DNA from: an uncultured Candidatus Saccharibacteria bacterium
GTDB taxonomy: Bacteria > Patescibacteriota > Minisyncoccia > Minisyncoccales > CAZWDF01
Direction: 5' to 3'
Length of the DNA stretch: 31,568 bases
Assembly (NCBI GenBank): GCA_964632335.1
Contig: CAZWDF010000002.1
Coordinates: 1 to 31,568, forward strand
Of this stretch, positions 253 to 17,291 are shown in pieces. Positions within the stretch are counted from its first letter, which is position 1, and every line of letters begins with the position of its first letter. The notes under the pieces are model-generated. The model had not been told where the DNA came from and did no database searches. It saw only the letters and a program-made list of their open reading frames with translations. Made by a program: the position numbers and the translations under genes.

Positions 253-438
253 ATGCAGTGGGACAAGTTACTCATAATCGTTTTACTGGTTGCGATAGCA
301 GTCATGCTTCACAAGTTAGTCACCCGCAACTCTACTTTGAAAACTACAGCATCTAAGACTCCGCTAGGGGTAGCTACAGAAGCCACAACGGCACAAGAAG
401 CACTGTTGTTAGCTTATCCAAATTGTAGAACTATTTAG
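253..438 (+). CDS. 61-aa N-terminal TM protein, probable virion membrane protein
   Basis: Hydrophobic LLIIVLLVAIAVML; directly upstream of the capsid genes. Confidence 0.65.
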   Translation: MQWDKLLIIVLLVAIAVMLHKLVTRNSTLKTTASKTPLGVATEATTAQEALLLAYPNCRTI

Positions 439-451
439 GAGGTAATGAACT

Positions 452-946
452 ATGGCAGTTGCAGTACTCAGGTCAATCAAATCAGAGATATTTTACCTAA
501 CGCAAGCGGATGCCACTGCCCAAACGGATTCCCAAGTAGAAAATTACGCTTTGCGGTATACCTATGCACCGATTTGGAAATATCAAGTCCCGGTGAACCA
601 AGAGTTTGTCTTGGCTCCAGAGCACAAGCTCTCAGTCTATATTGAGGACGATGAAAGTAGCCCTGCCGAATGGCGTAGTACGCAAAAAGTGAGGGTTGAG
701 TGGTGGGATGCTAGTCTCAAAAAGATGGAGATTATCTGGGAGGGTCGCTATATATCATGTAAAGAGGAGCAGGATCAAGATAAGATGGCACGTCTTGATA
801 TTATAGGTGGTGAACCGCTAGAAGTGAAATCTGGGGATTGGATTATTATTGCTGGTATGTCTGATGACACGCTGTATACGATTGATGTCTCAGATAGCCG
901 ATTTACCCTTGAATGTCGAAGGTTTAGACCGACCCTAATCCAATAG
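452..946 (+). CDS. Major capsid protein 1, single vertical jelly-roll (Halopanivirales-like)
   Basis: SD GGAGGT; paralogous to 960 and 1868 (WKYQVP, KVRVE..D, KEEQDQDKM); IDVSDSRFTL resembles SH1 VP7 C-terminus as recalled. Confidence 0.72.
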   Translation: MAVAVLRSIKSEIFYLTQADATAQTDSQVENYALRYTYAPIWKYQVPVNQEFVLAPEHKLSVYIEDDESSPAEWRSTQKVRVEWWDASLKKMEIIWEGRYISCKEEQDQDKMARLDIIGGEPLEVKSGDWIIIAGMSDDTLYTIDVSDSRFTLECRRFRPTLIQ

Positions 947-959
947 AGGAGGCAAATAT

Positions 960-1853
960 ATGAAAGAAGTCAAATTTCAACTGACTGACCTAGACCCCAA
1001 CATCACGGAAGATGGTGTTTTTGGGGCTGCTAAGTGGTGCGATACTTGGAGCTTCCAATGCCCTGAAAATATGGGCATTTTGCTGAAACCGGGGGACTAC
1101 TTCTCCATGAAGATGTACGACACTGGTGATGCTGAAATGGCTGCCCCAGATGCCCAGGTCAAGCTCGAAGTTCGTGACCCCTCTGGTCAGGTAGTAGGTG
1201 TTGTCTTCCCACCTGAAAACTACCTTAGCGTAAAGGAATTTCAGCAATACTCCAAGATGGCACAGCTTTGGATAGAGCAACCAATCCTGGTCACTCCCCG
1301 CAGCAAGATTGTCGTTATGACCAAGGATGATCTTGGTACGGATGCAAGTGGTATTGTTCTGAGTTATGCCCGGCTGATAACAACTAAAGTGCTAGGCACA
1401 TTCGCCAAGGGGCAATCACCAAGCCTACCGAGTATTGAGCCTTTCGTTATCATGCAAGAGGATTCCGATGTAACGCAAACAAGTAGCACCGCTGGGAGCC
1501 TGACTGACCTATTCGTCTATCGAGTACCAAAGGGCAGAGCGATAATTCTGAGACCGAGCGATGTCTTTGCCTGCTATCTCTATAACACTTCTTCCGCGGT
1601 CGCAACCAATACCTGCCCGGTAAAACTCGAAGTCCGCGATGCCACTGGCTTAGAGAAAAAGCCCATTCTTGGACCGCTTCAATACGGTAGCTTCCAGGGA
1701 GAGTTCCAGGATAAGGACAAGCTCGTTCACCTTGACATCAACGGCGAACTGACAGTAGTGGAGCAGGAATACATCGCCTTGATGGTAAACAACGCTGTAG
1801 CGATAAACTGTGCTACGAGCTACATGTCGCTTCGTTGCCATATCCGGAGATAA
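960..1853 (+). CDS. Major capsid protein 2, two tandem jelly-roll domains
   Basis: Homologous halves (LLKPGDYFSMKMY..VKLEVRDPSG..KEFQQYSK vs ILRPSDVFACYLY..VKLEVRDATG..GEFQDKDK); MKMYDTGDAEM resembles P23-77 VP16 LKLYDTGGNQL as recalled. Confidence 0.78.
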   Translation: MKEVKFQLTDLDPNITEDGVFGAAKWCDTWSFQCPENMGILLKPGDYFSMKMYDTGDAEMAAPDAQVKLEVRDPSGQVVGVVFPPENYLSVKEFQQYSKMAQLWIEQPILVTPRSKIVVMTKDDLGTDASGIVLSYARLITTKVLGTFAKGQSPSLPSIEPFVIMQEDSDVTQTSSTAGSLTDLFVYRVPKGRAIILRPSDVFACYLYNTSSAVATNTCPVKLEVRDATGLEKKPILGPLQYGSFQGEFQDKDKLVHLDINGELTVVEQEYIALMVNNAVAINCATSYMSLRCHIRR

Positions 1854-1867
1854 AGGAGGCTGCCTAA

Positions 1868-2332
1868 ATGGTTATGACGGCAGTTAAAGAAGAGCGATTC
1901 GAAGTAAACCCGGCATCAACGGGGATAACCGAGCAAGATGGTAGGGGTACTAATTGGTGGGATATTTGGGACTTCAAAGTGTCTCTAAACCAGGTCGTTA
2001 TCCTGCGCCCCACGGATGTATTTTCGTGCTACCTTGTGGGTGACGATGCCGCCGCGATGCCTAACGCCACGAAAGTTCGGGTAGTCAAGCGGGATGTCGC
2101 TAATGAGGACTCTATACCTATTCTCCCGGTGGTGAATTATAAGCAGGCTCAGGAGTTTGCCGATAAGAACTTACAGATGCACCTTCGGGCTCTGGGTGGA
2201 GTTATGGAGGTGGTAGCAGAGGAGCATATCGTAGTTCAGGTTTCCGGGGCTGATGCTACGGGAACTGGAGATACCGATGCTTCGGCATCTCACTTCAAGA
2301 TATTTTGCACCAGAAGGAGAAAGTCGCTCTAA
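1868..2332 (+). CDS. Major capsid protein 3, single vertical jelly-roll
   Basis: ILRPTDVFSCYL, ATKVRVVKRD and QEFADK motifs shared with the 960 domains; SD AAGGAGG. Confidence 0.72.
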   Translation: MVMTAVKEERFEVNPASTGITEQDGRGTNWWDIWDFKVSLNQVVILRPTDVFSCYLVGDDAAAMPNATKVRVVKRDVANEDSIPILPVVNYKQAQEFADKNLQMHLRALGGVMEVVAEEHIVVQVSGADATGTGDTDASASHFKIFCTRRRKSL

Positions 2333-2379
2333 GTAACGATAACTTTAGCTGGGCTACCTTGGTAGACGGTAGCTTCGCA

Positions 2380-2419
2380 GGGAGACTACCAGGTAAAGGT
2401 AGCCTCCCTATTTGTTTTT
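2380..2419 (+). terminator. Intrinsic terminator after the capsid genes, with a competing upstream stem
   Basis: GGGAG-A-CTACC / GGTAG-C-CTCCC followed by TATTTGTTTTT; GGCTACCTT (2352-60) can pair with AAGGTAGCC (2396-2404). Confidence 0.6.
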
Positions 2420-2438
2420 AGGAGAAGAGGGCAAGTCA

Positions 2439-2636
2439 ATGGCAAAAATGAGTAAGGCTGAGGCAAAGAGAATAGCACAGAGAAATGGTATCAGCTTCAA
2501 TGTAGGCTATCATACACTTCGCTCAAGCCAAACTGAACTATTGTCTGAACTCGCTAAGAAGACAGGTTATAGGAAACCAGCAAGTGCTAGTGGATCAAGA
2601 GCAAGGTATTTCTTCTATTACCTTGCCAAGAGATAA
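2439..2636 (+). CDS. Small basic hypothetical phage protein (65 aa)
   Basis: ATG at 2439 after a purine-rich SD; GYRKP..SGSRARYFF motif recalled from phage hypothetical proteins. Confidence 0.6.
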   Translation: MAKMSKAEAKRIAQRNGISFNVGYHTLRSSQTELLSELAKKTGYRKPASASGSRARYFFYYLAKR

Positions 2637-2681
2637 AAGGCAAAAGGACGGAAATAATATCCGCTTCCTGGAGGGCATGAC

Positions 2682-5543
2682 ATGACAATAGCATTTACAA
2701 GAGCAACTAGAATAGATGAGATAGATCCGAGCTATCTTCCCGATAACGATACCCTGAGCTTCGGCGATGATTTCCCCATGAACATAGTCTGGGATACCAA
2801 AGACGCTAATGCCAATATGGGGAAAATCAACCTACCGAGTGGCGGAGCGATTGATGTGCCGGTACTAGCAATAGGCATCGGGATCATAGACGTTGACCTT
2901 GGCTGGGCTAATGGGGTAACAGAACCATCAATAGCCATTGTTGACGCTGACCGAGATAGCTACATCACTTTCGGATTTGCTTCAGACGATAATGCCCAAA
3001 TCCAAAAAGGTGGTAGCGCGTGGTTTTCCATGAGTCTCGGTGGTACTGTGCCAGCAACCGTTGACCATAGTTCGGGACTAACTGGGGTAAGCGCAGTCTA
3101 TAATGACCTCGGCACTCTTGTCTCTAATCAAACCTATCGAGGCATCTACGGGCGATGGAATGTCAAAAGCACCACGCCGTCTAACCCTACCTGCGAAGTA
3201 ACAGGCATTGAAGGGGCTGCTGGGTCGGCTATCAATGACGAGGCGATAACCTTCCGAGGCGGGTATTTTAGAACTTACATTGACACTGACACATTAGCAA
3301 CTGCCTCCATGCGCACCAATGTTGGCTGTGAAATATCAGCGCGCGCTGCTTATCTTGGTGGAACTGAGGCAACGGCTGAGGGTGGCACAGCCTTTATCGG
3401 CGCTCGCATCTGGATGGCCCCCTATTTCAGTGACGCTAGCATAGGGAATATAAACAACTTCCACGCCTTATGGATAGTAAACGAGGCAGACGGAAAGACT
3501 GTCACAAATGCCATAAAGATAGATTCGAGCACTTATGGCGGTGGATTCTCCTATGCTTTCTACACCGATGGTGGGCGCTTCTATCAGGTCGTAGACGGCT
3601 CTGTTAATGGCTCTCTTCTTCAAGCTGCGGATAGTTCGGCAACTGGCTGGAATCTTATTGAGGCAAGGGCTGAGGACTATCGGACACTAACAAGTAGCCA
3701 GGAATATAAAGGGGCTTATGTCCGCTACAACGTGCGGTCTACTACTCCCAGCAATCCCACCTGTGAAGTCACTGGTATTGAGGGCGTAGCAGGTAGCTAT
3801 ATTGCCGATGAAGCTATAACTTTCAGGGGCGGCTACTTCCGCACCTATATCAATGCAGACGCTACCTCCACCATGAGAACTGCCGTGGGTTGCGAGATTT
3901 CAGCCCGGGCAAGTTATAGCGGCGGAACGCAATGCGTTGCTGAAGGTGGGACTGCCTTTGTGGGAGCCAGGATTTGGATGGCCCCATACTTCACTTCGGG
4001 GTCTATTGGGAACGTTAATAACTTTCATGGCCTCTGGATTGTCAATGAAGCTCCAGGTAAATTCGTTACGAATGCCATTAAGATAGATGCCACGACCTAT
4101 AACAGTGGATTTACCTACTGCTTTAATACTGATAGTGGCAAATTCCGCATGGCTCTTGATGGGAGCGAAGCTGGTAGTGGCTTGCTAGCCGGGGAGACTG
4201 CAACTGCTACTGGCGATGATTGGTTCTATCTTCAGGTTGATGACTGCCGTACCCTGACTTCCCTACAAACCTACCGGGCAGCTTACATCCGAAACAACAT
4301 TCGCTCGACTACCCCTTCCAATCCCGCCTGCGAGGTTACGGGAATAGAGGGAGTCGCGGGAAGTTACATCGCTGACGAAGCTATCACGTTTAGAGGGGGC
4401 TACTTCAGGACTTATACCAACGCCGATGCCACGAGCACAATGAGGACGGCGGTAGGATGCGAGATAAGCGCCAGAGCATCATATTCTGGAGGGACAGAAT
4501 GCGTAGCGGAGGGCGGCACGGCTTTCGTTGGGGCAAGAATCTGGATGGCTGGCTACTTTACCGATGCTTCTATTCCAAATGTAAACAATAGCCACGCTCT
4601 TTGGATTGTCAACGAAGTTCCACACGGAGCGAATTGGGCTAAATATGTTGATAGAGCCATCACCATAGACTCCAATACTTACGGAGCAGCTTTTAACTAC
4701 AACTTCTACACCGATACGGGCAAGTTCTACATGCACCTTGATGGAGCGGTAGCTGGTTCCGGTGTAGTAAAAGGTGAACGATTAAGCACTTCTGGTGACG
4801 ATTGGATGTCGGTGATAATAGACGATTACCGAACTCTTACTTCAGATCAGACCTATAATGGAGCCTTCTTCCGCTATAATATCCGCTCTACGACTCCTGG
4901 GGCTCCTCAAATGGAGGTCAACGGCATTGAAGCCGTAGCATCGACTTACGTTGCTGATGGCAACCTTCTGAGTATGCGAGGTGGTCATTTACGCTGCTAC
5001 ATTCAGCCTGGGGCTACAGCATCAGCAAAGACTTCGGTAGGTGCGGATATATCGGCCAGAGCTTCTTATAATGGCGGAACAGCCTGTCAAGCCTTAGCGG
5101 GTACTTGTTTTACTGGTCTCCGAATATGGATGGCTCCGTATTTTACCGGCGGCACAGTAGGTAACATTAATAACTTCTGGGGCTTGTGGATATTCGGTGA
5201 ACACTCTAGCCAACGAAACGCCGATGCTGCTATATTCATTAGTGATGCTGGAGGTGGTTATGTTGATGGTATCCGAATCAGCTCTGTTCTTTCGGGTTAT
5301 GGTATAGACCTAAACGGTTCAACGATAGCTACAGCAGACATTAGGATGAATAACGGTTGCGTGATAAACAACGATTTGGTCGATAGGATAATGATTGGGG
5401 CAGCTATCGGGATATGCAATGACGCGGCGCCGTCTGCCAATGCTCCAGCTAATGCTTGCGTCATCTACTTTGACGGTACGAACATAAAAGCAGTGAACGC
5501 TGCTGGAGCACACGCTACATTAGATAACGCAGGATTCGCTTAA
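2682..5543 (+). CDS. 953-aa spike/fibre-like protein with four ~190-aa internal repeats
   Basis: Repeat core STTPSNP.CEVTGIEG.AGS.I.DEAITFRGGYFRTY..GCEISARA..WMAPYF at nt 3192, 3762, 4329 and 4911; Gly/Ala/Thr-rich beta composition; follows the capsid genes. Confidence 0.7.
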   Translation: MTIAFTRATRIDEIDPSYLPDNDTLSFGDDFPMNIVWDTKDANANMGKINLPSGGAIDVPVLAIGIGIIDVDLGWANGVTEPSIAIVDADRDSYITFGFASDDNAQIQKGGSAWFSMSLGGTVPATVDHSSGLTGVSAVYNDLGTLVSNQTYRGIYGRWNVKSTTPSNPTCEVTGIEGAAGSAINDEAITFRGGYFRTYIDTDTLATASMRTNVGCEISARAAYLGGTEATAEGGTAFIGARIWMAPYFSDASIGNINNFHALWIVNEADGKTVTNAIKIDSSTYGGGFSYAFYTDGGRFYQVVDGSVNGSLLQAADSSATGWNLIEARAEDYRTLTSSQEYKGAYVRYNVRSTTPSNPTCEVTGIEGVAGSYIADEAITFRGGYFRTYINADATSTMRTAVGCEISARASYSGGTQCVAEGGTAFVGARIWMAPYFTSGSIGNVNNFHGLWIVNEAPGKFVTNAIKIDATTYNSGFTYCFNTDSGKFRMALDGSEAGSGLLAGETATATGDDWFYLQVDDCRTLTSLQTYRAAYIRNNIRSTTPSNPACEVTGIEGVAGSYIADEAITFRGGYFRTYTNADATSTMRTAVGCEISARASYSGGTECVAEGGTAFVGARIWMAGYFTDASIPNVNNSHALWIVNEVPHGANWAKYVDRAITIDSNTYGAAFNYNFYTDTGKFYMHLDGAVAGSGVVKGERLSTSGDDWMSVIIDDYRTLTSDQTYNGAFFRYNIRSTTPGAPQMEVNGIEAVASTYVADGNLLSMRGGHLRCYIQPGATASAKTSVGADISARASYNGGTACQALAGTCFTGLRIWMAPYFTGGTVGNINNFWGLWIFGEHSSQRNADAAIFISDAGGGYVDGIRISSVLSGYGIDLNGSTIATADIRMNNGCVINNDLVDRIMIGAAIGICNDAAPSANAPANACVIYFDGTNIKAVNAAGAHATLDNAGFA

Positions 5544-5555
5544 TGAGGAAAGGTA

Positions 5556-5741
5556 ATGCAACTAATAACGAGAGAAAATCCAGCTACCGTTGTGTTAGTA
5601 GGTAGAGAGATGAGCCAAATGGCTCAAGGTGAGAACTTAAAGATAAAGGTGGCTGGCGTTGAAACTCTTAATACTGAAGTGCCACACGGGAAAGTGTGGG
5701 TGGTTGATATATCTGTGACCATAAAGGAAACTGCGGCTTAA
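5556..5741 (+). CDS. Small beta-rich structural or accessory protein
   Basis: SD present; lies in the spike module. Confidence 0.55.
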   Translation: MQLITRENPATVVLVGREMSQMAQGENLKIKVAGVETLNTEVPHGKVWVVDISVTIKETAA

Positions 5742-5754
5742 TAGGAGGTAAAAG

Positions 5755-6171
5755 GTGAAGAGAGTCAAAATCGATGACAAGCCTAAGACTATTCTAGGTA
5801 AGGCTTTCAGGGTAACGAATCCCGAAGGCGAAACATTTGGGGAGACTTATGTTTGTGAGCGATGCGGTAATGAGATAGTCGTGCAGAAGCCAAAGATGAT
5901 TGAAGAGGCAAGTTTGGTTGACCTCTTGAAGTTGCTAGTTCTTTCAATCCCCCGGCAGAAATGCACCATGCAGGACTCCATAAACGCCTTTGACTTCATG
6001 CAGCAGTCAAAGGAGTCCCAGGACGGCGTTCTAGCACTTACGGACGGCATACACGATTGGCTAAAGAAGGCTGTCAAGGAAAACGGGACTCAAATCTTTG
6101 GAGTCAATGCCAATGCGATAGAGAAGGCTTTGGAGAATTTCGAGAGGGTAAAGGAAAGCAAGGGGAAGTGA
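5755..6171 (+). CDS. Hypothetical protein with CxxC (CERC); possible spike chaperone
   Basis: SD GGAGGT, GTG start; function inferred from position only. Confidence 0.55.
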   Translation: MKRVKIDDKPKTILGKAFRVTNPEGETFGETYVCERCGNEIVVQKPKMIEEASLVDLLKLLVLSIPRQKCTMQDSINAFDFMQQSKESQDGVLALTDGIHDWLKKAVKENGTQIFGVNANAIEKALENFERVKESKGK

Positions 6172-7220
6172 TGTTTGACCCAACATCAGCACTATTAGGT
6201 GGCGCGGCTGCCTGGATACTCAAGCCTGGCAATGGTAGCAAGGCTATTACTGCACAACTACTTGAAAAGTTAAGTGCGGATAAGCCTAGCGTCTATGATG
6301 TGCTGACTTATGATGCTTTGGAAGCCAGGGACAATAAAGAGATAACTGTAGCTGGGGATTTTATCAATGTGGTGCATTACCCAACAACCGTTCCTTTCTA
6401 TATCAGGCTGAATGAAAAGGACAACCCCGCAATAGACTTAAATAGGCTGAAGACTATTCGCTACCCATTCTACCGCTTCTTTCTGACTAACATAGCTGGT
6501 GCGGGAACGATAATCTTGAAGGTAGGTAGGGGCTTGCAGCTTGAAGAAGAGAGCTATGGCATAGACGAACTAGCAGCGCGCATGGCCTCCCCAGTCACCT
6601 TTGACCGAAGGGGAGAGGTTATCTGGATAGAGAATTTTGAGAATAGCACAAATAAGTTAGTCACAGTAACGACTGCTCCCCACGCTAGCACCTTTGCCAT
6701 ATCGACTACAACGGCTCGAAACGGGGCAAGCTCAGGTTTACTTAGTATAGCAGTAGGCGAAACACTAACTGTCAGAAAGACCTTGGGCTTGACGCACCTA
6801 TCGAAAGTAGGGCTCGAAATATCCTTTACCCTAAGCGATTCCATCAACAATATCACTGCTAGCATCTATGTCAATGACGGTTCTTATTTACATTGGGCTT
6901 CTATTCGCTACCTTGAAAGCGACTCGAAACTGTATTACTACAATAGCGCCGGTGGTTTTACAGAGCTATATGAAACGCTTGATCTGGCAATTGCAACGCA
7001 GACCTTTCATACGCTGAAGTTCGTTGTGGATTTAACCACTCACAAATATGTGAGGATGATGCTAGACAATATAGCCGTTGATATGTCAACGCTGGCTTAC
7101 TATTATGCGGCCTCCGTGTCGTCACCATCGGCAGCCTTCCAGCTTGCCGTAGAGAACAATGCCATAGGTACGCAATATATCTATCTTGACGACATGATAG
7201 TAACGCAGAACGAACCATAA
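6171..7220 (+). CDS. Vertex/penton-like protein: N-terminal jelly-roll-like domain plus C-terminal lectin-like beta-sandwich
   Basis: Likely start ATG 6171 (MFDPT), coupled to the upstream stop; FYIRLNE..IDL..PFYRFFLTN.A domain followed by a VIWIENFE beta-rich domain. Confidence 0.55.
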   Translation: MFDPTSALLGGAAAWILKPGNGSKAITAQLLEKLSADKPSVYDVLTYDALEARDNKEITVAGDFINVVHYPTTVPFYIRLNEKDNPAIDLNRLKTIRYPFYRFFLTNIAGAGTIILKVGRGLQLEEESYGIDELAARMASPVTFDRRGEVIWIENFENSTNKLVTVTTAPHASTFAISTTTARNGASSGLLSIAVGETLTVRKTLGLTHLSKVGLEISFTLSDSINNITASIYVNDGSYLHWASIRYLESDSKLYYYNSAGGFTELYETLDLAIATQTFHTLKFVVDLTTHKYVRMMLDNIAVDMSTLAYYYAASVSSPSAAFQLAVENNAIGTQYIYLDDMIVTQNEP

Positions 7221-7229
7221 GGAGTAAGC

Positions 7230-7484
7230 ATGGCAGATATAGCGATAACATTCACGAAATACGAAATAACTAATGATGGGGTTGCCATGCTCTTTACGGT
7301 GGTAAATCCACTACCCGGGCAACCTGAAAGCTATACCATAACGGCAACCAGGGCGGAACTTGTAACCATTACGACAATGCCGGAGCTAAAGGCATTTATG
7401 AAAGCGAAGTTAAAGGCAAAGATAGCCTCTGACTTAGCTGCACAGAAGCTAGATGGTGCAGTAGGGCAAACCATAGTTTTATAA
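7230..7484 (+). CDS. 84-aa protein, paralog of 9588..9851
   Basis: YEITNDGV.MLF.V.NP..G.P..Y...AT.AEL.TITT..KLD..VGQTI shared. Confidence 0.7.
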   Translation: MADIAITFTKYEITNDGVAMLFTVVNPLPGQPESYTITATRAELVTITTMPELKAFMKAKLKAKIASDLAAQKLDGAVGQTIVL

Positions 7485-7485
7485 A

Positions 7486-7502
7486 GTCGAAGACTTTTTG
7501 AG
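7486..7502 (+). promoter_or_regulatory. Dispersed 17-bp palindrome, copy 2
   Basis: GTCGAAGACTTTTTGAG between stop 7484 and the SD of 7512. Confidence 0.6.
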
Positions 7503-7511
7503 GAGAATATC

Positions 7512-7859
7512 ATGGTAATGAAAGCAACTCCAAGAATGCCACCGATACCGAAGCTAACCGAAGTCAGAACGGTTCAGCGCTTCGCGGTAGAGAATATCTA
7601 CATGCCAAGTGCTAATACCGAATACCCCTGGAATGTACCCTTCGGCTGCAAGCGGTTTATTATCACTGTCCGGGACGGCACGGCTGTAAGAGTTGCCATG
7701 GAGCCCAAGAAAGTAGCAGGGAGCGACTACCCCTACTTCACTCTCGACACCAATGGCTACTGGCAAGAGAGCGACCTTGATATCCAGACGGATGATTTCT
7801 TTATCTACTTCGCTTGTGCTTCGGCTGCCAAAACAGTTGAGATAATCATCGGAATGTGA
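7512..7859 (+). CDS. Small jelly-roll-like vertex protein (115 aa)
   Basis: Alternating beta pattern (PFGCKRFIITVRDGTAVRVAM..FFIYFAC..TVEIII). Confidence 0.5.
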   Translation: MVMKATPRMPPIPKLTEVRTVQRFAVENIYMPSANTEYPWNVPFGCKRFIITVRDGTAVRVAMEPKKVAGSDYPYFTLDTNGYWQESDLDIQTDDFFIYFACASAAKTVEIIIGM

Positions 7860-7869
7860 GGGCAAAGAA

Positions 7870-8490
7870 ATGGGACTAGGCGTTAAGAAAATAGACATAG
7901 CTGCCATAACAGAAGCGAGGCTGGCGGAGCTTGATGCCGCCAATATGCCTGCTGACCTTGATGTGGTAAAGGCGGATACGCCTTATATTGCTGATCTCGC
8001 CTTGCCCACGACTCCTACTACGGGGTCACTAGGTAGATTAGCCAAGGATTATCTCACTGGCGATGCCTACGCTCGATTGGGAGCACCTGCTGGAGCAAGC
8101 GCGGCGGTGGATATTGCGGCAATCAAAACCGATACCGCCTCTCTTAAAATTCAAGCTCATGCTACGGGAACGCAAACAGCTACCGTAACCACAGAGCACT
8201 TCTTATCTTCGCCAAATGTCGCAGGGGCTTTTATGCTAGTGGTAGACATGATAAACATGGCGGCTAACGATGTTGTGGAGCTTCGGGCCTATCAAATGGT
8301 GCTTACAGGCGGAACAGCTCGGGTAGTCTACTTTATGGCTTACTATGGGGCTCAGGCTACCGATGAAATGATAACGGTATCCGATATAGTCTACAACGAA
8401 TTGGCAGAGACAAATGCTGTGAGGTTTAGCTTGAAACAGACATTTGGGACGGGTAGAGCTTTCCCGTGGAAGGTACTTAAACATGCCTAA
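7870..8490 (+). CDS. Spike shaft/head-like protein
   Basis: ARLGAPAGASAAVDIAAIK shaft-like segment followed by a beta-rich C-terminal domain. Confidence 0.5.
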   Translation: MGLGVKKIDIAAITEARLAELDAANMPADLDVVKADTPYIADLALPTTPTTGSLGRLAKDYLTGDAYARLGAPAGASAAVDIAAIKTDTASLKIQAHATGTQTATVTTEHFLSSPNVAGAFMLVVDMINMAANDVVELRAYQMVLTGGTARVVYFMAYYGAQATDEMITVSDIVYNELAETNAVRFSLKQTFGTGRAFPWKVLKHA

Positions 8491-9022
8491 GTTTCCTAAT
8501 AAGCTAGTTCTCCCTACTGGTCTTATAACTATATCGCCTTACTCTTTAGAGAGTACAGGAGCAGGTTCGGGTAGTTGGGGGGCACCAGCTAGTGCAGTAT
8601 GGGCATCAGCTAGTAGGGCAATTTATATTCCTTTCAGGATTTCCAAGCCTATTGCTGTTGTTAACCTATACTGCTTCAACGGGGCAGTGGTTAATGGGAA
8701 TATAGACCTTGGCATATATGATGTGGCTGGTACTCGCATTGTTTCTACTGGTTCAACAGCGCAGGCTGTGATTAACTCCCTTCAGGCAGTAGCCATAACA
8801 TCAACTGTAATAGGGCCTGGTATGTTCTACATGGCGATTGCACTAGATGGTACTGTAGGAACTATTTTTACGAGTAGAGCTGTGGGTGCTATTCCCCATA
8901 GAATAGCTATGGGTATGGCACAACAGGCAGCCGCTTTCCCTTTGCCTGCTACGGCCACATTCGCTACTATCACTGATAATAGCCTGCCTGTTGCTGGCCT
9001 ATCAAGAAGGTCGGTGGTATAA
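8483..9022 (+). CDS. Beta-rich structural protein, tandem paralog A (start MPKF)
   Basis: Paralog of 9023 (AIYIPFRISKPI..NGAVVNGNIDLGIYD..GTRIVSTGSTAQA..G.FYMAIALD..PATATFA). Confidence 0.7.
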   Translation: MPKFPNKLVLPTGLITISPYSLESTGAGSGSWGAPASAVWASASRAIYIPFRISKPIAVVNLYCFNGAVVNGNIDLGIYDVAGTRIVSTGSTAQAVINSLQAVAITSTVIGPGMFYMAIALDGTVGTIFTSRAVGAIPHRIAMGMAQQAAAFPLPATATFATITDNSLPVAGLSRRSVV

Positions 9023-9577
9023 ATGAGTAATTGGCCTATCCCGACATTTGAACCTCTAGTAACAATAAATCCTTGGTCAGAGGAGAGTATAGGTGATGCC
9101 ATTACTTCGGCAGGAGGGTCAGCTATCAGTCAAGCAGCATCCACCGCTTGGCCGACTGCTAACTTGGCCCTATATGTACCATTCCAAGTAAGAAAACCTA
9201 TTGTAGTAGTAAAGATGTTTTGTTACAACGGGGCTGCGGTAGCTGGCAATGTTGATGTTGGAATATATAGTGAATATGGTACAAGAATAGTCTCTATTGG
9301 TTCGACTGCACAAGCTGGGCTGAGTGCGATACAAGAATTTGATATTGCCGACACATTATTGGGGACAGGGATTTTTTATATGGCAATAGCTTTGGATGAT
9401 GCAACAGCCACAGCAACCATTCGGAGAGGGACAATGGCGGCTAATGCTATACCAGCCATAACAGGTATGGCACAAGAGCAACTAGCATCTGTTACCTTAC
9501 CTGCCACAGCTACTTTTGCCAGCATCGCAGGGAACTATATCCCTGTATTCGGTCTAACAGTGAGAACATTGATATAA
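9023..9577 (+). CDS. Beta-rich structural protein, tandem paralog B
   Basis: LYVPFQVRKPI..NGAAVAGNVDVGIYS..GTRIVSIGSTAQA..GIFYMAIALD..PATATFA. Confidence 0.7.
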   Translation: MSNWPIPTFEPLVTINPWSEESIGDAITSAGGSAISQAASTAWPTANLALYVPFQVRKPIVVVKMFCYNGAAVAGNVDVGIYSEYGTRIVSIGSTAQAGLSAIQEFDIADTLLGTGIFYMAIALDDATATATIRRGTMAANAIPAITGMAQEQLASVTLPATATFASIAGNYIPVFGLTVRTLI

Positions 9578-9587
9578 AGGGGGAACG

Positions 9588-9851
9588 ATGGGACTTCAAG
9601 CAAGCGCAACGATGGTATTTAATAGCTATGAGGTAATAGATAATGGCATAAATCTACACTTCGTTTGTTCTAACCCAGGTGGCGGAGAACCTAGTGATTA
9701 TTATGTTTTAGCTACAGATGCCGAACTAGCCACCATAACCACGCAGGTGCAGCTGAAGACGCTAGTGACTACCAAATTACAACGCAAGCTCAGAGCGCAA
9801 GGAATAGCGACAAAGCTCGATGCACTCATCGGGCAAAGTATTACTATATAG
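9588..9851 (+). CDS. 87-aa protein, paralog of 7230..7484
   Basis: Shared motif set with 7230. Confidence 0.7.
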   Translation: MGLQASATMVFNSYEVIDNGINLHFVCSNPGGGEPSDYYVLATDAELATITTQVQLKTLVTTKLQRKLRAQGIATKLDALIGQSITI

Positions 9852-9861
9852 GAGGTCAAAA

Positions 9862-9993
9862 ATGGGTAAAATCGTAAACAGGGTAATTGAGGGGCTCCAG
9901 TGGGCGGTAAAGATCATTGAGATCGCTGTGACCATTCAGCAAGCTGTTCTCAACGGCATTAACCGAATGCTCGAAGACCTAAAGGAGGAATAG
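9862..9993 (+). CDS. 43-aa amphipathic peptide (not in ORF track)
   Basis: SD GGAGGT; MGKIVNRVIEGLQWAVKIIEIAVTIQQAVLNGINRMLEDLKEE*. Confidence 0.6.
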   Translation: MGKIVNRVIEGLQWAVKIIEIAVTIQQAVLNGINRMLEDLKEE

Positions 9994-9997
9994 GGCA

Positions 9998-10285
9998 ATG
10001 GAAAATATCAACGCAGTAGGTGCTTTCGTAGCCCTAACCTTTCTAGCGGTTTTTACTGAGTGGCTAAACGAGAGGCTATTCGGCGGCTGGCTTAAAGGCA
10101 AGCAGATGATTGCTACCGCAACCGTTATCGGGCTTGCCTTGACCTGCTCAATAAAGATCGGCGGTCTAAGCCTTCTGGGTATTGATGCTAGCGCGTGGGT
10201 AGACAGGGTAATTACTGGGCTTGTAGTTGGTGGAGGTAGCAACGCCGTACACGCTTTCTTCAAGGATAAATTAGGCAGAGTATAA
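9998..10285 (+). CDS. Holin-like multi-TM protein
   Basis: Two to three TM segments; C-terminal VITGLVVGGGSNAVH resembles the G..SN.vH signature of small phage holins. Confidence 0.5.
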   Translation: MENINAVGAFVALTFLAVFTEWLNERLFGGWLKGKQMIATATVIGLALTCSIKIGGLSLLGIDASAWVDRVITGLVVGGGSNAVHAFFKDKLGRV

Positions 10286-10295
10286 GGAGACCAAA

Positions 10296-10481
10296 ATGAG
10301 CAGAGGTAAGTTGCCCTGGGTAAGTGCTGTAGTGGAAGTCGTGGGGATTGCTGTGATAGGTGGGGGCATTGCCTTGGAGATTGTCTATGAGGCAGATATT
10401 TATTGCTGGGTCATTACTACCAGCTCACTTCTTCTAGCCAGTGGCGGCTTACTCTGGGCAAAAGTCTATAGAGCGAGGTAA
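10296..10481 (+). CDS. 2-TM small membrane protein
   Basis: Two hydrophobic stretches; SD AAGGAG. Confidence 0.6.
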   Translation: MSRGKLPWVSAVVEVVGIAVIGGGIALEIVYEADIYCWVITTSSLLLASGGLLWAKVYRAR

Positions 10482-10485
10482 AGAT

Positions 10486-10944
10486 ATGGCTTATGAACTT
10501 CAGTCTGAAAAGTACTATGCCGCTTGGTATCCTTACAAGGGTGAGTATGAGATAGCTGTCTCAGATATTACCTTTGACCTACCTGATCAGCTATTACCCG
10601 AAGGATGGATTAGTAAAATCCATGCCCTTTTCGTGGATAAATTCAAAGAGTATGGCGAAACGATGCTCTACATGAAGACAGAAGTAGACAAAAGTGCTAC
10701 ATGGCAGACTAGGTTCAGAGTAACCACCTATTCGCACCCTGGCGTTCTAATAGTTTTAGGGGTCATTGCGGCGCTTATCGCGCTTGTTTTGCTTGCATCA
10801 ATGGTCTGGAACATCTCAACAGCTATTAAGACAATAAGTGAAAACCCTGTGCTATCATGGGGCTTTCTACTCATTGCCATAGCCGCTGTTGCCGTTGTCG
10901 GAGCGGTGATTTACTACCTTTACAAGACAGGAAAATTCGCTTAG
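10486..10944 (+). CDS. Membrane protein with two C-terminal TM helices (start MAYEL)
   Basis: SD GAGGT before ATG 10486; hydrophobic C-terminal half. Confidence 0.6.
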   Translation: MAYELQSEKYYAAWYPYKGEYEIAVSDITFDLPDQLLPEGWISKIHALFVDKFKEYGETMLYMKTEVDKSATWQTRFRVTTYSHPGVLIVLGVIAALIALVLLASMVWNISTAIKTISENPVLSWGFLLIAIAAVAVVGAVIYYLYKTGKFA

Positions 10945-10954
10945 GAGGTAAAAC

Positions 10955-11287
10955 ATGGCACAAAGTAAAGCATTGGCAAAGTTACCCTTGATGGAGAAGG
11001 GGTGGGCTAGGTTGTTAGCTGGAGTCGCCGCGGGTTGGCTAGTCAACTATGGTTGGCAAAAGGGTAAACTACCAGGGTATGGCAAGATAGTTTTCCAACT
11101 GCCCAAAGGAAGCCCAGAAGCAGGAGAAGTGTTTGCTGTAGCCTGGGACAATCTTGCTGAAGTAGGCATCGGTATAATTCTCCTACTCTTCGTAGACAAG
11201 ATGTTCGGTCTGGGATTTGTCCTTGGTATAGTGCTGGTTAAGGCACTAGAGTATGTCCCAGGATACCGGAAGGCACTTAAACTTTAA
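10955..11287 (+). CDS. Multi-TM membrane protein
   Basis: SD GGAGGT; three hydrophobic segments. Confidence 0.6.
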   Translation: MAQSKALAKLPLMEKGWARLLAGVAAGWLVNYGWQKGKLPGYGKIVFQLPKGSPEAGEVFAVAWDNLAEVGIGIILLLFVDKMFGLGFVLGIVLVKALEYVPGYRKALKL

Positions 11288-11320
11288 GGGATAGCCTCAG
11301 ACTATTTAGGAGGGGGAATA

Positions 11321-11722
11321 GTGCTGGAGTACAGGGTCTTCATTGGCACTTATGGCAACGGTACAACTAACCCTAGCCCTGGGTCTGTTGTCGTTCCATC
11401 GGGAGTTGCATTAACGATACAAGCGATCCCCGGTGATGGGACTTACCCTACGCGCCTATGGTTCTGGATGGTTAATGGCGTTGTAGTTAGTAAAAGTAGC
11501 GCCATCACGGTAAAGGACGCATGTAGAGTAGAAGCAAACTTTTACACAGAGGGGTGGACTCCAGGCATAGAGCCTCCGATAGCACCGCCTGACGAAATAG
11601 ACCAAACGCCATTTGTACCCCCTGGTGGTGGAGGGGGCAGTAAGATTATCTGGGCTATTGGGCTCTTTGCCATAGCTATTGCCATATTCATTATTGCGTC
11701 AGGGAAGGGGAAGGGAAAATGA
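11321..11722 (+). CDS. Membrane-anchored protein with divergent InlB B-repeat (Flg_new-like) domain
   Basis: GNGTTNPSPGSVVVPSGVALTIQAIP..FW.VNG..ANF, Pro/Gly linker, C-terminal TM plus basic tail. Confidence 0.55.
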   Translation: MLEYRVFIGTYGNGTTNPSPGSVVVPSGVALTIQAIPGDGTYPTRLWFWMVNGVVVSKSSAITVKDACRVEANFYTEGWTPGIEPPIAPPDEIDQTPFVPPGGGGGSKIIWAIGLFAIAIAIFIIASGKGKGK

Positions 11723-12060
11723 ACATACAACTAACCATAGGGCTAAATGAGGTAGTCTATCCCGGGGTAACCATGCCAATTGCCGATGCTGTAGCCTCCA
11801 TAGCTACCACGATAAACGCTGTTTGGTACTACGACAAGATAGCTGACAAGTGGCTAGGCTATGCTCCCTCAGCCCCATCATGGGCAAATGACCTAGCAAC
11901 CGTTACGAAAGGCGAGACCTATAGTGTGACGGCCTTAGAGAATTGTACCTGGGTTATCGACACAGGGCAACCGAAGAGCGATTGGTGGAAGATTATTGTG
12001 GCGGTACTGATGCTCGTGGGCTTGATAGCCCTAGCGGTTTTATGGGGGAAAATTGAATGA
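11719..12060 (+). CDS. Membrane-anchored protein with a surface-protein-like domain (VWYYD..W.GY.P.AP.WANDL)
   Basis: Motif recalled from Chloroflexota surface proteins; C-terminal TM. Confidence 0.5.
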   Translation: MNIQLTIGLNEVVYPGVTMPIADAVASIATTINAVWYYDKIADKWLGYAPSAPSWANDLATVTKGETYSVTALENCTWVIDTGQPKSDWWKIIVAVLMLVGLIALAVLWGKIE

Positions 12061-12518
12061 AAAAGACCGACTTAGCCTATATTGCAGGGCTCTTTGATGG
12101 CGAAGGCTGTGTTTCTTTCAGCACTAGCAAATATAAACCAAGGGGTACTGTTAGCCACCAGATTTTAGTAACCCTAGGCAATACTGAGGAGTACCCTATT
12201 CAATGGCTTCACCTATGCTATGGCGGTAGCATTTATGTCCGGAAGCCTCCAAAACAATTCCCACGAGCCAAAACACTTTATGTATGGCGGTTACTATGCC
12301 AAGAAGCCTGCAATTTTTTGAAGGATATTGAGCCTTATCTAATTATCAAGAAACCCCAAGCAACTATAGCTATTAAGTACGGCGAATCTCTTAGGGTTGG
12401 GGGATACAAGGGTCACCCCAAGACTGAAGGGGAAAGGGCTGTTGATGAAGCCTATAAAATTATGATAAGCAACCTCAACAAGAGGGGAAAGCATGATATT
12501 GATGTCTCAACTAAATAA
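12057..12518 (+). CDS. Free-standing LAGLIDADG homing endonuclease (single motif)
   Basis: LAYIAGLFDGEGC motif; IEPYLIIKKPQA; start overlaps the upstream stop (ATGA). Confidence 0.88.
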   Translation: MKKTDLAYIAGLFDGEGCVSFSTSKYKPRGTVSHQILVTLGNTEEYPIQWLHLCYGGSIYVRKPPKQFPRAKTLYVWRLLCQEACNFLKDIEPYLIIKKPQATIAIKYGESLRVGGYKGHPKTEGERAVDEAYKIMISNLNKRGKHDIDVSTK

Positions 12519-12535
12519 GATAGGACGGGAATAGA

Positions 12536-12820
12536 ATGGCAATCCAGACTGCCGCCGGCATAGGCATGGCTCTTATCGCGAGTGAGCATTTTTACTCTAC
12601 GATGCTATCAAGCCCTCCAACAACTGAGAAGTTCTTTTCTGATACTGACGAGGGCAAGGCAAAGACTAGGCATATGTATTTGACGGCTACAGCCTTATCT
12701 ATAGTCACGGCGGTACTATTGAGCTATATCTTAAAAGAGCCTTGGCCGTTGGTTGCTACCATTGTTCTTTGCATAATTTATATTTACATCTATGAAAGGG
12801 CTTTAAGGGGCGAGGTCTAA
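12536..12820 (+). CDS. Multi-TM membrane protein
   Basis: Hydrophobic segments. Confidence 0.6.
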   Translation: MAIQTAAGIGMALIASEHFYSTMLSSPPTTEKFFSDTDEGKAKTRHMYLTATALSIVTAVLLSYILKEPWPLVATIVLCIIYIYIYERALRGEV

Positions 12821-12821
12821 T

Positions 12822-13256
12822 ATGCTTCAAATAACGAGAGTTTGGGCTGAACCATCAAGCCTAAACGCTGGCGGAAGCACCACTATCAACGTAGAAGTGC
12901 AGAACCCGGACACCAATGCAGTATCGGGGCGTTGTAGTGTCGCTATCTTAGCTACGGATTACCCGTCTGTGGGGCAGGACTCTTACGACCACGGCTGGGA
13001 GAAAGCCATAGCCCTTGCCTCGCAAGAGACAAAGGTCTTCCCCTTTGCCGATTCTGGGCTAAAGGCCCCATACGGTAGAAGCTGGGCGGCTCGCGTAACT
13101 TTGATGGTAGATACGACAATACTAGACACGAAAACCTTTGACAATATCTATGAGGTTAAGGCAATTATACCGCCAACGAAGCAAGAGATACCTTGGGTGT
13201 GGCTTCTCATTGGAGTAGTCGCGATTGTAGGCTTCGTGATAGCAACAAAGGAATAA
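12822..13256 (+). CDS. Ig-like domain protein with C-terminal TM anchor; paralog of 14287
   Basis: MLQITRVWAEPSSLNAGGSTTINVEV..PYGRSW vs MIKILRVTAIPNTVPDGGSCTVVLEL..CYGRSW. Confidence 0.6.
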   Translation: MLQITRVWAEPSSLNAGGSTTINVEVQNPDTNAVSGRCSVAILATDYPSVGQDSYDHGWEKAIALASQETKVFPFADSGLKAPYGRSWAARVTLMVDTTILDTKTFDNIYEVKAIIPPTKQEIPWVWLLIGVVAIVGFVIATKE

Positions 13257-13268
13257 AAGGAGGTGGGG

Positions 13269-13391
13269 GTGAATTTAGGTAAAATAGATACGATACTTTT
13301 CGCAATCCTAGTTCTGGTAGTGCTCATCGAGTTTTACTGGACATGGCAAGACAGAAAGAAAGGAATTCAAAAAGCAGGAGGCGTGTTATGA
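13269..13391 (+). CDS. 40-aa single-TM peptide (not in ORF track)
   Basis: SD AAGGAGGT, GTG start; MNLGKIDTILFAILVLVVLIEFYWTWQDRKK..; stop overlaps ATG 13388. Confidence 0.6.
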   Translation: MNLGKIDTILFAILVLVVLIEFYWTWQDRKKGIQKAGGVL

Positions 13392-13900
13392 ACACAAAAA
13401 CAATCATCTTGGTAGTGGTCACTCTGGGAATAATAGGGCTCATCCTCTGGTTTATGAGGCAGGAGAAGAAACAAACGGGGTTGATGCTGCAAATCATCGA
13501 CAACAAGACGGGAAAGACACTCGAAGCTCACTCGCCAGTCGACTTGCTCGAAGGCGGCTCATACACAATACGAGCCAAGGTCACCAACACCAGCACAAAA
13601 GCTGGCGTGGGCGTAAACGCTCACCTTGCTACGAACCTGGTACTGTCATACACAGACGCAGGCGGAGCAACTAGACTCATAAACTCCAAAACCGATGATG
13701 TTTTTTACATCGCCGGGGCAGCTCGTGTTATAGACCTAGTGGTAACGATACCATCTGATGCCGCAGGGCGTTATGGAGAAGCAATCGCTGTGGTTACTTC
13801 CATGGATGTTAACCAAGAACTAGCTCGCAAAACCATCCCAACAAAATATATAGCTGCTCCGTTCGTTTACGGAGTTTCGCTTGAGTGGGCGGTAATCTAA
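13388..13900 (+). CDS. N-terminally anchored Ig-like domain protein (start MNTKT)
   Basis: TM segment followed by beta-rich YTIRAKVTNT..DLVVTIP. Confidence 0.6.
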   Translation: MNTKTIILVVVTLGIIGLILWFMRQEKKQTGLMLQIIDNKTGKTLEAHSPVDLLEGGSYTIRAKVTNTSTKAGVGVNAHLATNLVLSYTDAGGATRLINSKTDDVFYIAGAARVIDLVVTIPSDAAGRYGEAIAVVTSMDVNQELARKTIPTKYIAAPFVYGVSLEWAVI

Positions 13901-13924
13901 TCCTTTAACTAGGGGAGGTTGACA

Positions 13925-14104
13925 ATGGCAAAAGCGGATAAGTACCAGGTCGAAGACTCTATTCGAGCTGCCAAATGCCCGGATTGTGGTCAATTCATGG
14001 ATAAAGTCCAGGTAGTAGTCATAGCGCAGATTTCCGAGGGCTTGGTTAAGCCGTCTGTGGTAGCTGTAACAGGCTGGGTATGCGCTAAGTGCTGTGAGGA
14101 GTAG
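13925..14104 (+). CDS. Small Zn-ribbon protein
   Basis: CPDC..CAKC. Confidence 0.6.
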   Translation: MAKADKYQVEDSIRAAKCPDCGQFMDKVQVVVIAQISEGLVKPSVVAVTGWVCAKCCEE

Positions 14105-14107
14105 AAT

Positions 14108-14284
14108 ATGCCACTAAAGCAATTCTGCTGTAGCATTTGTGGGAGATGTGCTCCTAAGAAGCTCTTGGAGCATAGTCAATTTACTAATCGCTTAGCCTGG
14201 TTGCGCCGCCATAGGGCGAAGTATCACCCAAAGGCTTTTAAGAAGTCAGTCAAGAAGGCCGTAAAGACTAGGAAGGGAGGTTAG
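14108..14284 (+). CDS. 58-aa basic C2H2-type zinc-finger protein (not in ORF track)
   Basis: CSIC..LRRHRAKYH followed by a Lys-rich tail. Confidence 0.6.
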   Translation: MPLKQFCCSICGRCAPKKLLEHSQFTNRLAWLRRHRAKYHPKAFKKSVKKAVKTRKGG

Positions 14285-14286
14285 GA

Positions 14287-14637
14287 ATGATAAAGATTCT
14301 CAGAGTAACGGCTATCCCAAACACAGTGCCAGATGGAGGGTCATGCACAGTAGTGCTCGAACTTAGTTCAGACCAGATTGGTAAGGTTTATGCCCGCATG
14401 ATGTTCGGTGTATCTGGCTCTAACGGAGAAGAATTTTCTCCAGACCAGAGTTTCGAGAGGGCTATAACTACCAGCATAGACCGCACAAGCTCGCATCCGT
14501 GGAAAATAAAAGTTAGACCGTGTTACGGTAGGAGTTGGGTTTGTAGGGCCTATATCTACAAGACAAGGCTACCTAATGGCAAACTCGAAGATGAGATTGA
14601 CCACCTGTTTGTTGACCCGATATACCAAGTTACTTAG
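14287..14637 (+). CDS. Ig-like protein, unanchored paralog of 12822
   Basis: Shared N-terminus and YGRSW motif. Confidence 0.6.
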   Translation: MIKILRVTAIPNTVPDGGSCTVVLELSSDQIGKVYARMMFGVSGSNGEEFSPDQSFERAITTSIDRTSSHPWKIKVRPCYGRSWVCRAYIYKTRLPNGKLEDEIDHLFVDPIYQVT

Positions 14638-14651
14638 AAGGGAGGTTAGAA

Positions 14652-14747
14652 ATGCCAGAGAAGAAAACGCCAAAGATAATTAAGCCAAAGGTCAATGTAC
14701 CGCAACCGCAAGTACCAGGCACTACACCTGGAAGAAAAGATTGGTGA
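14652..14747 (+). CDS. 31-aa Pro/Lys-rich peptide (not in ORF track)
   Basis: SD GGAGGT; MPEKKTPKIIKPKVNVPQPQVPGTTPGRKDW*; stop overlaps GTG 14744. Confidence 0.5.
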   Translation: MPEKKTPKIIKPKVNVPQPQVPGTTPGRKDW

Positions 14748-16868: not shown

Positions 16869-17291
16869 TTAACCATATCTCTGTAAGATTTCTCTTGCGA
16901 ATTTAACTAAGTCCTTAACCTTTGCACCTTTTGGTTGCCAGGATACCCATAATTCAAGATTCTCTATTCTGTTATCATCCTTGACACCATTCTTATGATG
17001 GACACTTTCACCGGGTAGTAATTTCCGACCTAGATATTCCTGCATAACAAGTCGATGGAGAAGTTGTCCTTGTCTCTCTCCGTCAACATATCTGCGGATA
17101 TATCCCTTTGGTTCTTTATAATCATGTCTTTTTCTTATAGGTTTATCAGTAGAACCATACCTTTGAAATCTTCCCCAATGTATCCGACAATAACCATGAC
17201 TCCTGAGATTGAGATTGCATCCTTCAACTTGGCATTTCTGTGGCACCCGATGCCCAAATTTGTGTTTTGGTTTTTCTTCTTCATTATTCAT
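16869..17291 (-). CDS. HNH endonuclease (HNH_3-like) with N-terminal Zn motif
   Basis: [25 protein letters not shown]; C.VEGC..GYCRIH. Confidence 0.85.

Follow-up and report, generated by a model that had tools for sequence, protein, structure and literature searches.

A predicted single jelly-roll capsid cassette with two fused domains in the genome of an uncultivated, probably bacterial virus

The capsid cassette described here lies near the start of contig CAZWDF010000002.1 (assembly GCA_964632335.1), a single metagenomic contig of 31,568 nt whose entire length was analysed and is referred to below as the window. Three genes of this cassette, A, B, and C, encode four paralogous domains that are homologues of the vertical single jelly-roll capsid proteins of the Halopanivirales, closest to the small capsid protein type, as judged by sequence profile and predicted fold. 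The middle gene, B, encodes two of these domains, B1 and B2, in one polypeptide. The best explanation of the whole, to which we assign a probability of about 0.72, is that the window is the genome of a tailless, internal-membrane virus that is uncultivated, probably temperate, and probably infects bacteria, and that it carries a four-domain cassette of the VP7/VP16 type whose B1 and B2 domains have become fused into what is proposed to be a covalent dimer. Halophilic archaea and Thermus are the hosts of the known virus families with upright single jelly-roll capsid proteins.

The original prediction placed four paralogous domains in three open reading frames (ORFs) of the forward strand; the three ORFs were recovered at exactly the expected positions, the middle one free of internal stop codons (Table 1), and each has a strong GGAGG ribosome-binding site 6–9 nt before its ATG. 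For pairwise comparison, B was split into B1 (amino acids (aa) 1–150) and B2 (aa 151–297). All six BLASTP pairs among A, B1, B2, and C are significant (E = 1.4e-6 to 3.6e-20; 27–31% identity), mostly near full length, which bears out the paralogy; A matches the other three with E = 1e-6 to 2e-10. The shared motif series that had been read from the translations is likewise visible in a four-way alignment, as W..W.Y.VP, L.P.D.FS.YL, V...RD, Y...KEF.D..K..L, and a final S.F.L strand.

Searched against 1.84 billion representative proteins, a profile built from all four domains retrieved 169 matches at E ≤ 1e-3 and 104 at E ≤ 1e-10, almost all of them single-domain proteins of 140–165 aa. By this profile, the cassette domains form a sizeable, unannotated protein family: A, B, and C have no family match in Pfam, PHROGs, or NCBIfam, B alone matched only itself in a word-indexed protein search, a tblastn search of 50,697 records from phages and archaeal viruses with B as query returned nothing at E ≤ 1, and a scan of GTDB genomes and IMG/VR with the C-type alignment and motif gave no confirmed relatives. 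One match, P0112 (1661 aa, nine matching stretches), is a VCBS/cadherin-like repeat adhesin in which weak repeats add up, and was treated as a false positive. Another, the C-type protein P0014 (279 aa), carries close to its C-terminus an insertion of ~110 aa in which helical-looking units (..ADYNAHR..) recur, a further case of the family tolerating insertions in loops.

When the 104-sequence family profile was searched against the sequences of PDB chains, the top five matches were VP7 (6h82, 6h9c; HHIV-2 and HCIV-1) and VP16 (3zmo; P23-77), the former nearly end to end with E = 0.005–0.016 and the latter with E = 0.03. Alignment of profiles with hhalign gave a probability of 73% (E = 3e-5) for P23-77 VP16 and 62% (E = 7.5e-5) for SH1 VP7, weak similarity to the large capsid protein VP17 (E = 0.0018), and no profile similarity to VP4 (E = 0.22). 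These values place the domains, marginally, as sequence homologues of VP7 and VP16. Motifs from known capsid proteins had been cited in the original prediction in support of this kinship. P23-77 VP16 does contain LKLYDTGG, which aligns to the fS.YL.D motif of the window family, and SH1 VP7 does contain STRVIVQKCD, which likewise aligns to the family motifs, but the SRFTL attributed to VP7 is absent from it; VP7 has SRLTL, and SRFTL is found in window protein A.

The predicted structures point to the same proteins. The AlphaFold2 model of C (predicted local distance difference test score (pLDDT) 95.7; predicted template modelling score (pTM) 0.89) has the expected jelly-roll fold, and in a Foldseek search of the PDB its hits 1–25 are all Halopanivirales capsid proteins: VP7 with query template modelling (TM) scores (TMq) of 0.74–0.77 and root-mean-square deviations (rmsd) of 2.7–3.4 Å, VP4 with 0.64–0.66, and VP16/VP17 with 0.55–0.64 (0.55–0.63 for VP16). 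The first hit outside the Halopanivirales is the TNF-like RANKL, at a TM-score of 0.38. Identity in the structural alignments to VP7/VP16-type proteins is only 11–17%. The model of B (pLDDT 89.7; pTM 0.60) comprises two all-β domains, of which B2 has pLDDT values mostly of 96–98 and B1 has block values of 81–94 up to residue 120 and of 73–79 over residues 121–143. Between the last strand of B1 (residues 132–145) and the first strand of B2 (residues 159–165) lie 13 residues without secondary structure. VP7 chains are again the best Foldseek hits of B (target TM-scores (TMt) of 0.67–0.73), and both halves give VP7 as top match. Both B domains also align to double jelly-roll capsid proteins (E = 4e-6 to 2e-4); a search of BFVD with B returned generic multi-jelly-roll matches only (TM 0.16–0.29), which are uninformative. 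Sequence profile and fold search together thus bear out the assignment to the Halopanivirales type of vertical single jelly roll.

Jelly rolls are common in spikes and lectins as well, and TNF-like and CUB domains do occur lower in the Foldseek lists, so the four paralogs could be vertex, receptor-binding, carbohydrate-binding, or other accessory proteins of a shell made by another product of the window. Their capsid role is predicted from homology and gene order, and the window encodes another adjacent pair of ~190-aa β-rich paralogs, at 8444–9577. We consider this explanation quite unlikely. For C, the TM-scores fall from 0.55–0.77 to 0.38 as soon as the Halopanivirales capsid proteins end, and no structural block is better conserved among relatives than the cassette, whereas L001, a 27-kb relative, has nothing that corresponds to the 8444–9577 pair. 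The position of the cassette, with a small membrane protein before it and a large repeat protein after it, matches VP12-VP7-VP4-...-VP2 of SH1, and family scans of the window ORFs yielded no HK97-type or double jelly-roll capsid candidate, no portal, and no terminase.

The original prediction further held that the middle ORF consists of two complete domains joined in series, a reading that is upheld by relatives in which the two are separate. Seven contigs from other samples (L001–L004 and L006–L008) carry four separate genes in the order small membrane protein, A (164–167 aa), B1 (145–152 aa), B2 (141–145 aa), and C (149–153 aa); the gene A call of L007, at 200 aa, runs long upstream. The small gene upstream of A has 58–62 aa and is present in L001–L006 and L008. 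Orthologues of A occupy the same position in seven contigs at 55–60% identity, and the halves of B are 52–66% (B1) and 54–66% (B2) identical to their free-standing orthologues, each a complete protein of 141–152 aa. The conservation of B1 and B2 matches that of A and C, so neither half of B appears decayed. By this comparison, four separate adjacent genes are the apparent ancestral state, kept by the close relatives, and B arose from it by fusion.

The junction DNA shows what has changed. In L002–L004, B1 ends with ...LLTTK(I/V)(V/I)E and a stop codon, followed by a spacer of 14–17 nt with a GGAGG-type ribosome-binding site and then by ATG-ATT/ATA-GAG-CC (MIEPF...), the start of B2; in L001, the B1 stop codon overlaps the B2 ATG. 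In the window, TTK is followed by GTG CTA GGC ACA TTC GCC AAG GGG CAA TCA CCA AGC CTA CCG AGT and then by ATT GAG CCT. This junction has neither a stop codon nor a usable ribosome-binding site, has AGT in place of ATG, and is 14 nt longer than in the relatives; its 15 residues, VLGTFAKGQSPSLPS, stand in for the last three B1 codons, the stop codon, the GGAGG spacer, and the ATG. The first ATG that follows in frame lies at 1452 and is not preceded by a ribosome-binding site. With neither a start codon nor a ribosome-binding site of its own, B2 is predicted from the DNA to be made only as part of the 297-aa two-domain protein.

That all close relatives (52–66% identity) have separate B1 and B2 genes, and that the window sequence is a single metagenomic contig seen once, would also fit an artefact of assembly or sequencing, in which an indel or a chimeric join removed the B1 stop codon. 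Such an origin is very unlikely. A single indel would have kept the stop codon, the ribosome-binding site, and the ATG in another frame, yet the other two frames hold unrelated sequence with stop codons. Because several independent changes are needed at the junction, where GGAGG has become AAGGGG at the wrong distance and the remainder cannot be aligned, a single sequencing error is improbable, and a fusion of this kind is also found on L005, an independent contig from a different sample.

The second fused gene, P0002 on L005, encodes 296 aa and is 45% identical to each half of B, but its linker, AGSIPSQGGMRAAAL, is unrelated to that of the window. The family includes at least 27 free-standing proteins of B1 type and at least 36 of B2 type, versus two fused ones. 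Each fused gene is closest to unfused genes (66% identity for the window, 56% for L005), and in neighbour-joining trees the fused genes are sisters in only 3 of 200 bootstraps for B1 and in none of 200 for B2; the same ordered pair was therefore probably fused twice, two independent fusions being the simplest reading of these sequences. At the L005 junction (~6140–6160), an in-frame ATG and GTG are kept just before B2, and separate expression of B2 might remain possible there, whereas the window lacks such a start.

L005 differs from the window in its A-position gene as well (4775–5656, 293 aa), in which a conserved segment of ~140 aa is inserted into the jelly roll. A-position genes of 293–304 aa with an insertion of this length are found in L005 and L011 (27–941), and the architecture recurs in ~15 family representatives, including P0042, P0059, P0060, P0066, P0069, P0072, P0085, P0091, and P0105. 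The insertion lies between core motifs three and four and reads DDGG..TDET...NDMTL.PA...DAYYFG...WEYYNGS.W..LPG..D...W..P.DW...YW.R. It may correspond to the tower of VP4/VP17, and it is clearly a different predicted architecture from the tandem fusion in B.

The pseudo-hexagonal capsomers of the Halopanivirales are built up from upright jelly rolls that have paired into dimers beforehand (PMC6414509; PMC8812541). By analogy, B1 and B2 would most likely be neighbours within one capsomer-building dimer; the fusion would make this dimer covalent and enforce both adjacency and a 1:1 stoichiometry, and A and C would occupy the remaining capsomer positions. Since the same pair has been fused in the same order again in L005, the C-terminus of B1 and the N-terminus of B2 would be expected to be neighbours once the shell is assembled. 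Capsomers of four domain types, as put forward in the original prediction, would be a candidate arrangement. A bolder version, in which B assembles as a true double-barrel capsomer subunit (e.g., as trimers giving pseudo-hexagons) with A and C elsewhere in the lattice, is possible but held only tentatively, at somewhat under even odds. If it is true, a double jelly-roll-like capsid protein would have had an independent, recent, and repeated origin by fusion inside Singelaviria/Helvetiavirae. The term double jelly-roll, as it had been applied to B, holds in the sense that two complete jelly rolls are predicted in one chain; the side-by-side packing of double jelly-roll proteins was not recovered in the AlphaFold model.

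B might instead be a precursor that is cut in its linker, or B2 might be stacked on B1 as a surface turret, with no side-by-side two-barrel subunit formed in either case. The linker is rich in G, S, P, and Q and unstructured in the model, the domain arrangement in the model is unlike that of double jelly-roll capsid proteins, and the large capsid proteins known from the Halopanivirales, VP4 and VP17, do carry a second, upper domain. We judge these possibilities unlikely all the same, as no protease gene was detected in the window and B2 is orthologous to full-size, free-standing base domains with all core motifs, not to a turret. The tower-like architecture of this family is the ~140-aa insertion in an A-type domain (L005 and L011) and not a tandem copy, and proximity of the two termini in the shell would more readily account for the probable double fusion of one pair in one order.

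The setting of the cassette is that of a tailless virus. Divergently transcribed beside it is an operon with a P-loop packaging-type ATPase, whose profile, built from six orthologues, matches the STIV2 B204 genome-packaging NTPase over its full length (E = 6.8e-10 against the PDB) and then HerA; the window ATPase also matches phrog_2666 at 8e-16. Its orthologues in L001–L003, L005, and L006 are 39–45% identical, and in all relatives the ATPase gene lies within ~3 kb of the capsid cassette. A hydropathy scan found nine small ORFs with predicted membrane helices on the structural strand, consistent with an internal virion membrane. The B204-type ATPase, the nine predicted membrane proteins, and the SH1-like gene order together support a tailless virus with an internal membrane; a tailed phage was rejected, as the family scans gave no terminase, portal, or HK97-type capsid candidate.

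Several points weigh against the reading developed here. The capsid role of A, B, and C comes from homology, conservation, and gene order, and the similarity to VP7/VP16 is marginal in sequence (E = 0.005–0.03; hhalign probability 62–73%); the case leans on predicted structures. Compared with the capsid proteins of STIV, PRD1, PR772, and FLiP, the B model has TM-scores of 0.18–0.28 and rmsd values of 17–18 Å, for a monomer model with a half-shallow alignment; the domain packing of B was judged through TM-scores alone. The alignment behind this model is deep for the C-terminal half and holds two sequences for the N-terminal half: MAFFT stacks all single-domain homologues on one half of B, whereas B1-type sequences alone go to the N-terminal half. 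The trees were made quickly, by neighbour joining on ~145 columns, the fused junction is known from the assembled contig alone, and the packaging ATPase lies outside the capsid operon, a layout that SH1 shares.

Table 1. Features of the window with positions, strand, and supporting observations
Feature	Position	Strand	Observation
Direct terminal repeat	1–55 = 31514–31568		55 bp, exact identity; assembly overlap signature
Small protein, 61 aa, one predicted N-terminal membrane helix	253–438	+	Hydropathy scan; first cassette gene
Capsid paralog A (predicted), 164 aa, single jelly-roll domain, most divergent of four	452–946	+	BLASTP; family hidden Markov model E = 2e-45
Fused gene B, 297 aa	960–1853	+	Uninterrupted ORF
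B1 domain, aa 1–143 of B	960–1388	+	Orthologous to free-standing genes of 145–152 aa
Fusion junction, aa 144–158, VLGTFAKGQSPSLPS	1389–1433	+	Junction DNA compared with L001–L004
B2 domain, aa 159–297 plus stop	1434–1853	+	Orthologous to free-standing genes of 141–147 aa
Capsid paralog C (predicted), 154 aa, single jelly-roll domain, best conserved of four	1868–2332	+	~40 orthologues, 43–65% identity
Protein of 953 aa with four tandem ~190-aa repeats	2682–5543	+	aa 141–340, 330–530, 520–724, 714–840; 61–72% identity
Series of eight small proteins predicted to have membrane helices	9998–13900	+	Hydropathy scan, Pfam; interrupted by LAGLIDADG-like ORF 12057–12518
Tyrosine integrase	28188–28787	−	Pfam Phage_integrase, 3e-17; directly downstream of ATPase
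P-loop packaging-type ATPase, 256 aa	28791–29561	−	Divergently transcribed operon beside capsid cassette

The exact repeat at both ends of the contig indicates a complete, circularly assembled genome of 31,513 bp, circular or terminally redundant. The forward strand from 253 to 15,406 carries the capsid cassette, the 953-aa four-repeat protein, several unannotated β-rich proteins, and the nine predicted small membrane proteins. The reverse strand encodes, besides the ATPase and the integrase, a helix-turn-helix protein, three HNH endonucleases, a replisome-organiser-like protein, a DnaA/IstB-like ATPase, a PD-(D/E)XK nuclease, and two DNA methyltransferases. Only two ORFs of the window exceed 350 aa, and the window has no tRNA genes.

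Further structural candidates follow the cassette. The 953-aa repeat protein has no match in the family libraries, and its conservation in L002 is confined to the first ~117 aa; from its position, which is that of the large spike VP2 of SH1, it is a candidate for a variable protein of the vertex or of host recognition. The adjacent β-rich paralogs at 8444–9022 and 9023–9577 (forward strand; 192 and 184 aa, 49% identical over 175 aa, no family match) are possibly variable spike or receptor-binding proteins; as true capsid proteins they were rejected, since they are not conserved in relatives. A second pair of paralogs, at 12822–13256 and 14287–14637 (forward strand), is 29% identical over ~90 aa (E = 3e-10) and has a common N-terminal domain, to which the first adds a C-terminal membrane helix. 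The 387-aa ORF at 6057–7220 (forward strand, TTG start) overlaps a 138-aa ORF at 5755–6171 by 115 nt; conservation in L001 begins only at residue ~70, and its true start is probably further downstream.

The integrase, which is conserved in L002, L003, L005, and L006, suggests by its place beside the ATPase that the virus is temperate. GGAGG sites, replication genes like those of firmicute phages, and distant family members on contigs of Chloroflexota and Bacillota metagenome-assembled genomes (MAGs) suggest a bacterial host, probably a bacterium other than Thermus, and one distant MAG-borne family member adjoins cellular genes. The contig L012 (1–8773; Chloroflexota MAG, GCA_016210565.1) encodes P0121, a distant family member of 145 aa, beside a 147-aa ORF that falls below the threshold of the family hidden Markov model; the two lie directly downstream of cellular glycosyltransferase and radical-SAM genes and have the look of an integrated provirus with the classical layout of two small genes. 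For a genome of 31.5 kb, the load of homing-endonuclease-like genes is unusually high, with HNH genes at 16869–17291, 20582–21082, and 27529–28191 (reverse strand) in addition to the LAGLIDADG-like ORF. The DNA methyltransferases (17288–18124 and 19106–19912, reverse strand), one of C5-cytosine and one of N6/N4 type, probably serve anti-restriction self-methylation.

The window and its relatives apparently represent an undescribed, seemingly bacterial branch of these viruses in which the capsid gene has been multiplied to four paralogs. Viruses with upright single jelly-roll capsid proteins, the helvetiaviruses, have been described as encoding two capsid proteins (PMC10848233; PMC8328091), a cold-seep virome preprint reports three single jelly-roll capsid proteins only, and the searchable literature holds no description of a four-paralog single jelly-roll clade or of a fused single jelly-roll capsid gene; the Skuldviruses turned out to be double jelly-roll viruses. 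An origin of double jelly-roll proteins by fusion of two single jelly-roll genes was proposed in 2008 and set aside for the Bamfordvirae in 2022 (PMC8812541). The genomes compared here show that single jelly-roll genes do become fused in nature, with the states before and after fusion both available at 52–66% identity. They open to testing how a covalent link affects capsomer assembly and subunit ratios, what shape a four-component capsomer takes, and whether double jelly-roll-like subunits evolve convergently. As the family has no Pfam, PHROG, or NCBIfam model and no IMG/VR relative in pattern scans, current marker sets for virus detection may miss it.

In terms of domain architecture, the window proteins resemble the small major capsid proteins of the Halopanivirales, VP7 of SH1, HHIV-2, and HCIV-1 (PDB 6qt9, 6h82, 6h9c) and VP16 of the Thermus phage P23-77 (PDB 3zmo, 3zn5), which are eight-stranded jelly rolls of ~150–170 aa like those predicted here; the profile similarity extends along nearly the whole length of both VP7 of the Sphaerolipoviridae and VP16 of the Matshushitaviridae. 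Unlike VP7 and VP16, the window has two capsid copies fused in one chain. The large major capsid proteins with a tower, VP17 of P23-77 and VP4 of SH1/HCIV-1, have a base jelly roll that resembles the window domains (TMq 0.55–0.66), but the second half of the 297-aa protein repeats the entire base domain in tandem and is neither an insertion nor an upper domain.

The double jelly-roll capsid proteins of the Bamfordvirae share with B two jelly rolls per polypeptide, a tailless virus with a membrane (predicted in the present case), and a packaging ATPase of FtsK/HerA type. Each B domain is nonetheless far closer to VP7/VP16 than to either half of a double jelly-roll protein, and the B fusion is recent and lineage-specific, its unfused orthologues standing at 52–66% identity, which speaks against common descent with these proteins. 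Double jelly-roll capsid proteins are themselves now thought to derive from cellular DUF2961-like double jelly-roll proteins, not from a fusion of single jelly rolls of Helvetiavirae (PMC8812541; PMC10848233).

In gene order, SH1 is the closest parallel. Its genes VP12-VP7-VP4-ORF26-VP13-VP2 face ORF17, the ATPase, and in the window the ATPase operon likewise stands opposite a small membrane protein, the capsid genes, small genes, and a large repeat protein, with the 61-aa protein upstream of A in the place of VP12 upstream of VP7. The linkage of a packaging ATPase that belongs to the FtsK/HerA superfamily (A32-like) to the capsid genes, as in the Halopanivirales, is also present. The differences lie in gene number and genome form: the Halopanivirales (Sphaerolipoviridae, Simuloviridae, and Matshushitaviridae) have two capsid genes, the large one with a tower, whereas the four domains of the window, none of them with a tower, are spread over three genes and its seven relatives have four single-domain capsid genes; and the window genome is circular, 31.5 kb, and encodes an integrase, whereas Sphaerolipoviridae genomes are linear with terminal proteins (PMC12643093). 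At BLAST level (tblastn with B), neither deposited phages and archaeal viruses nor classified members of the Halopanivirales resemble the window. As it lacks both this similarity and the arrangement of two capsid genes, one with a tower, the virus is assigned to no existing family; it appears to form a new lineage inside Singelaviria/Helvetiavirae or next to them.

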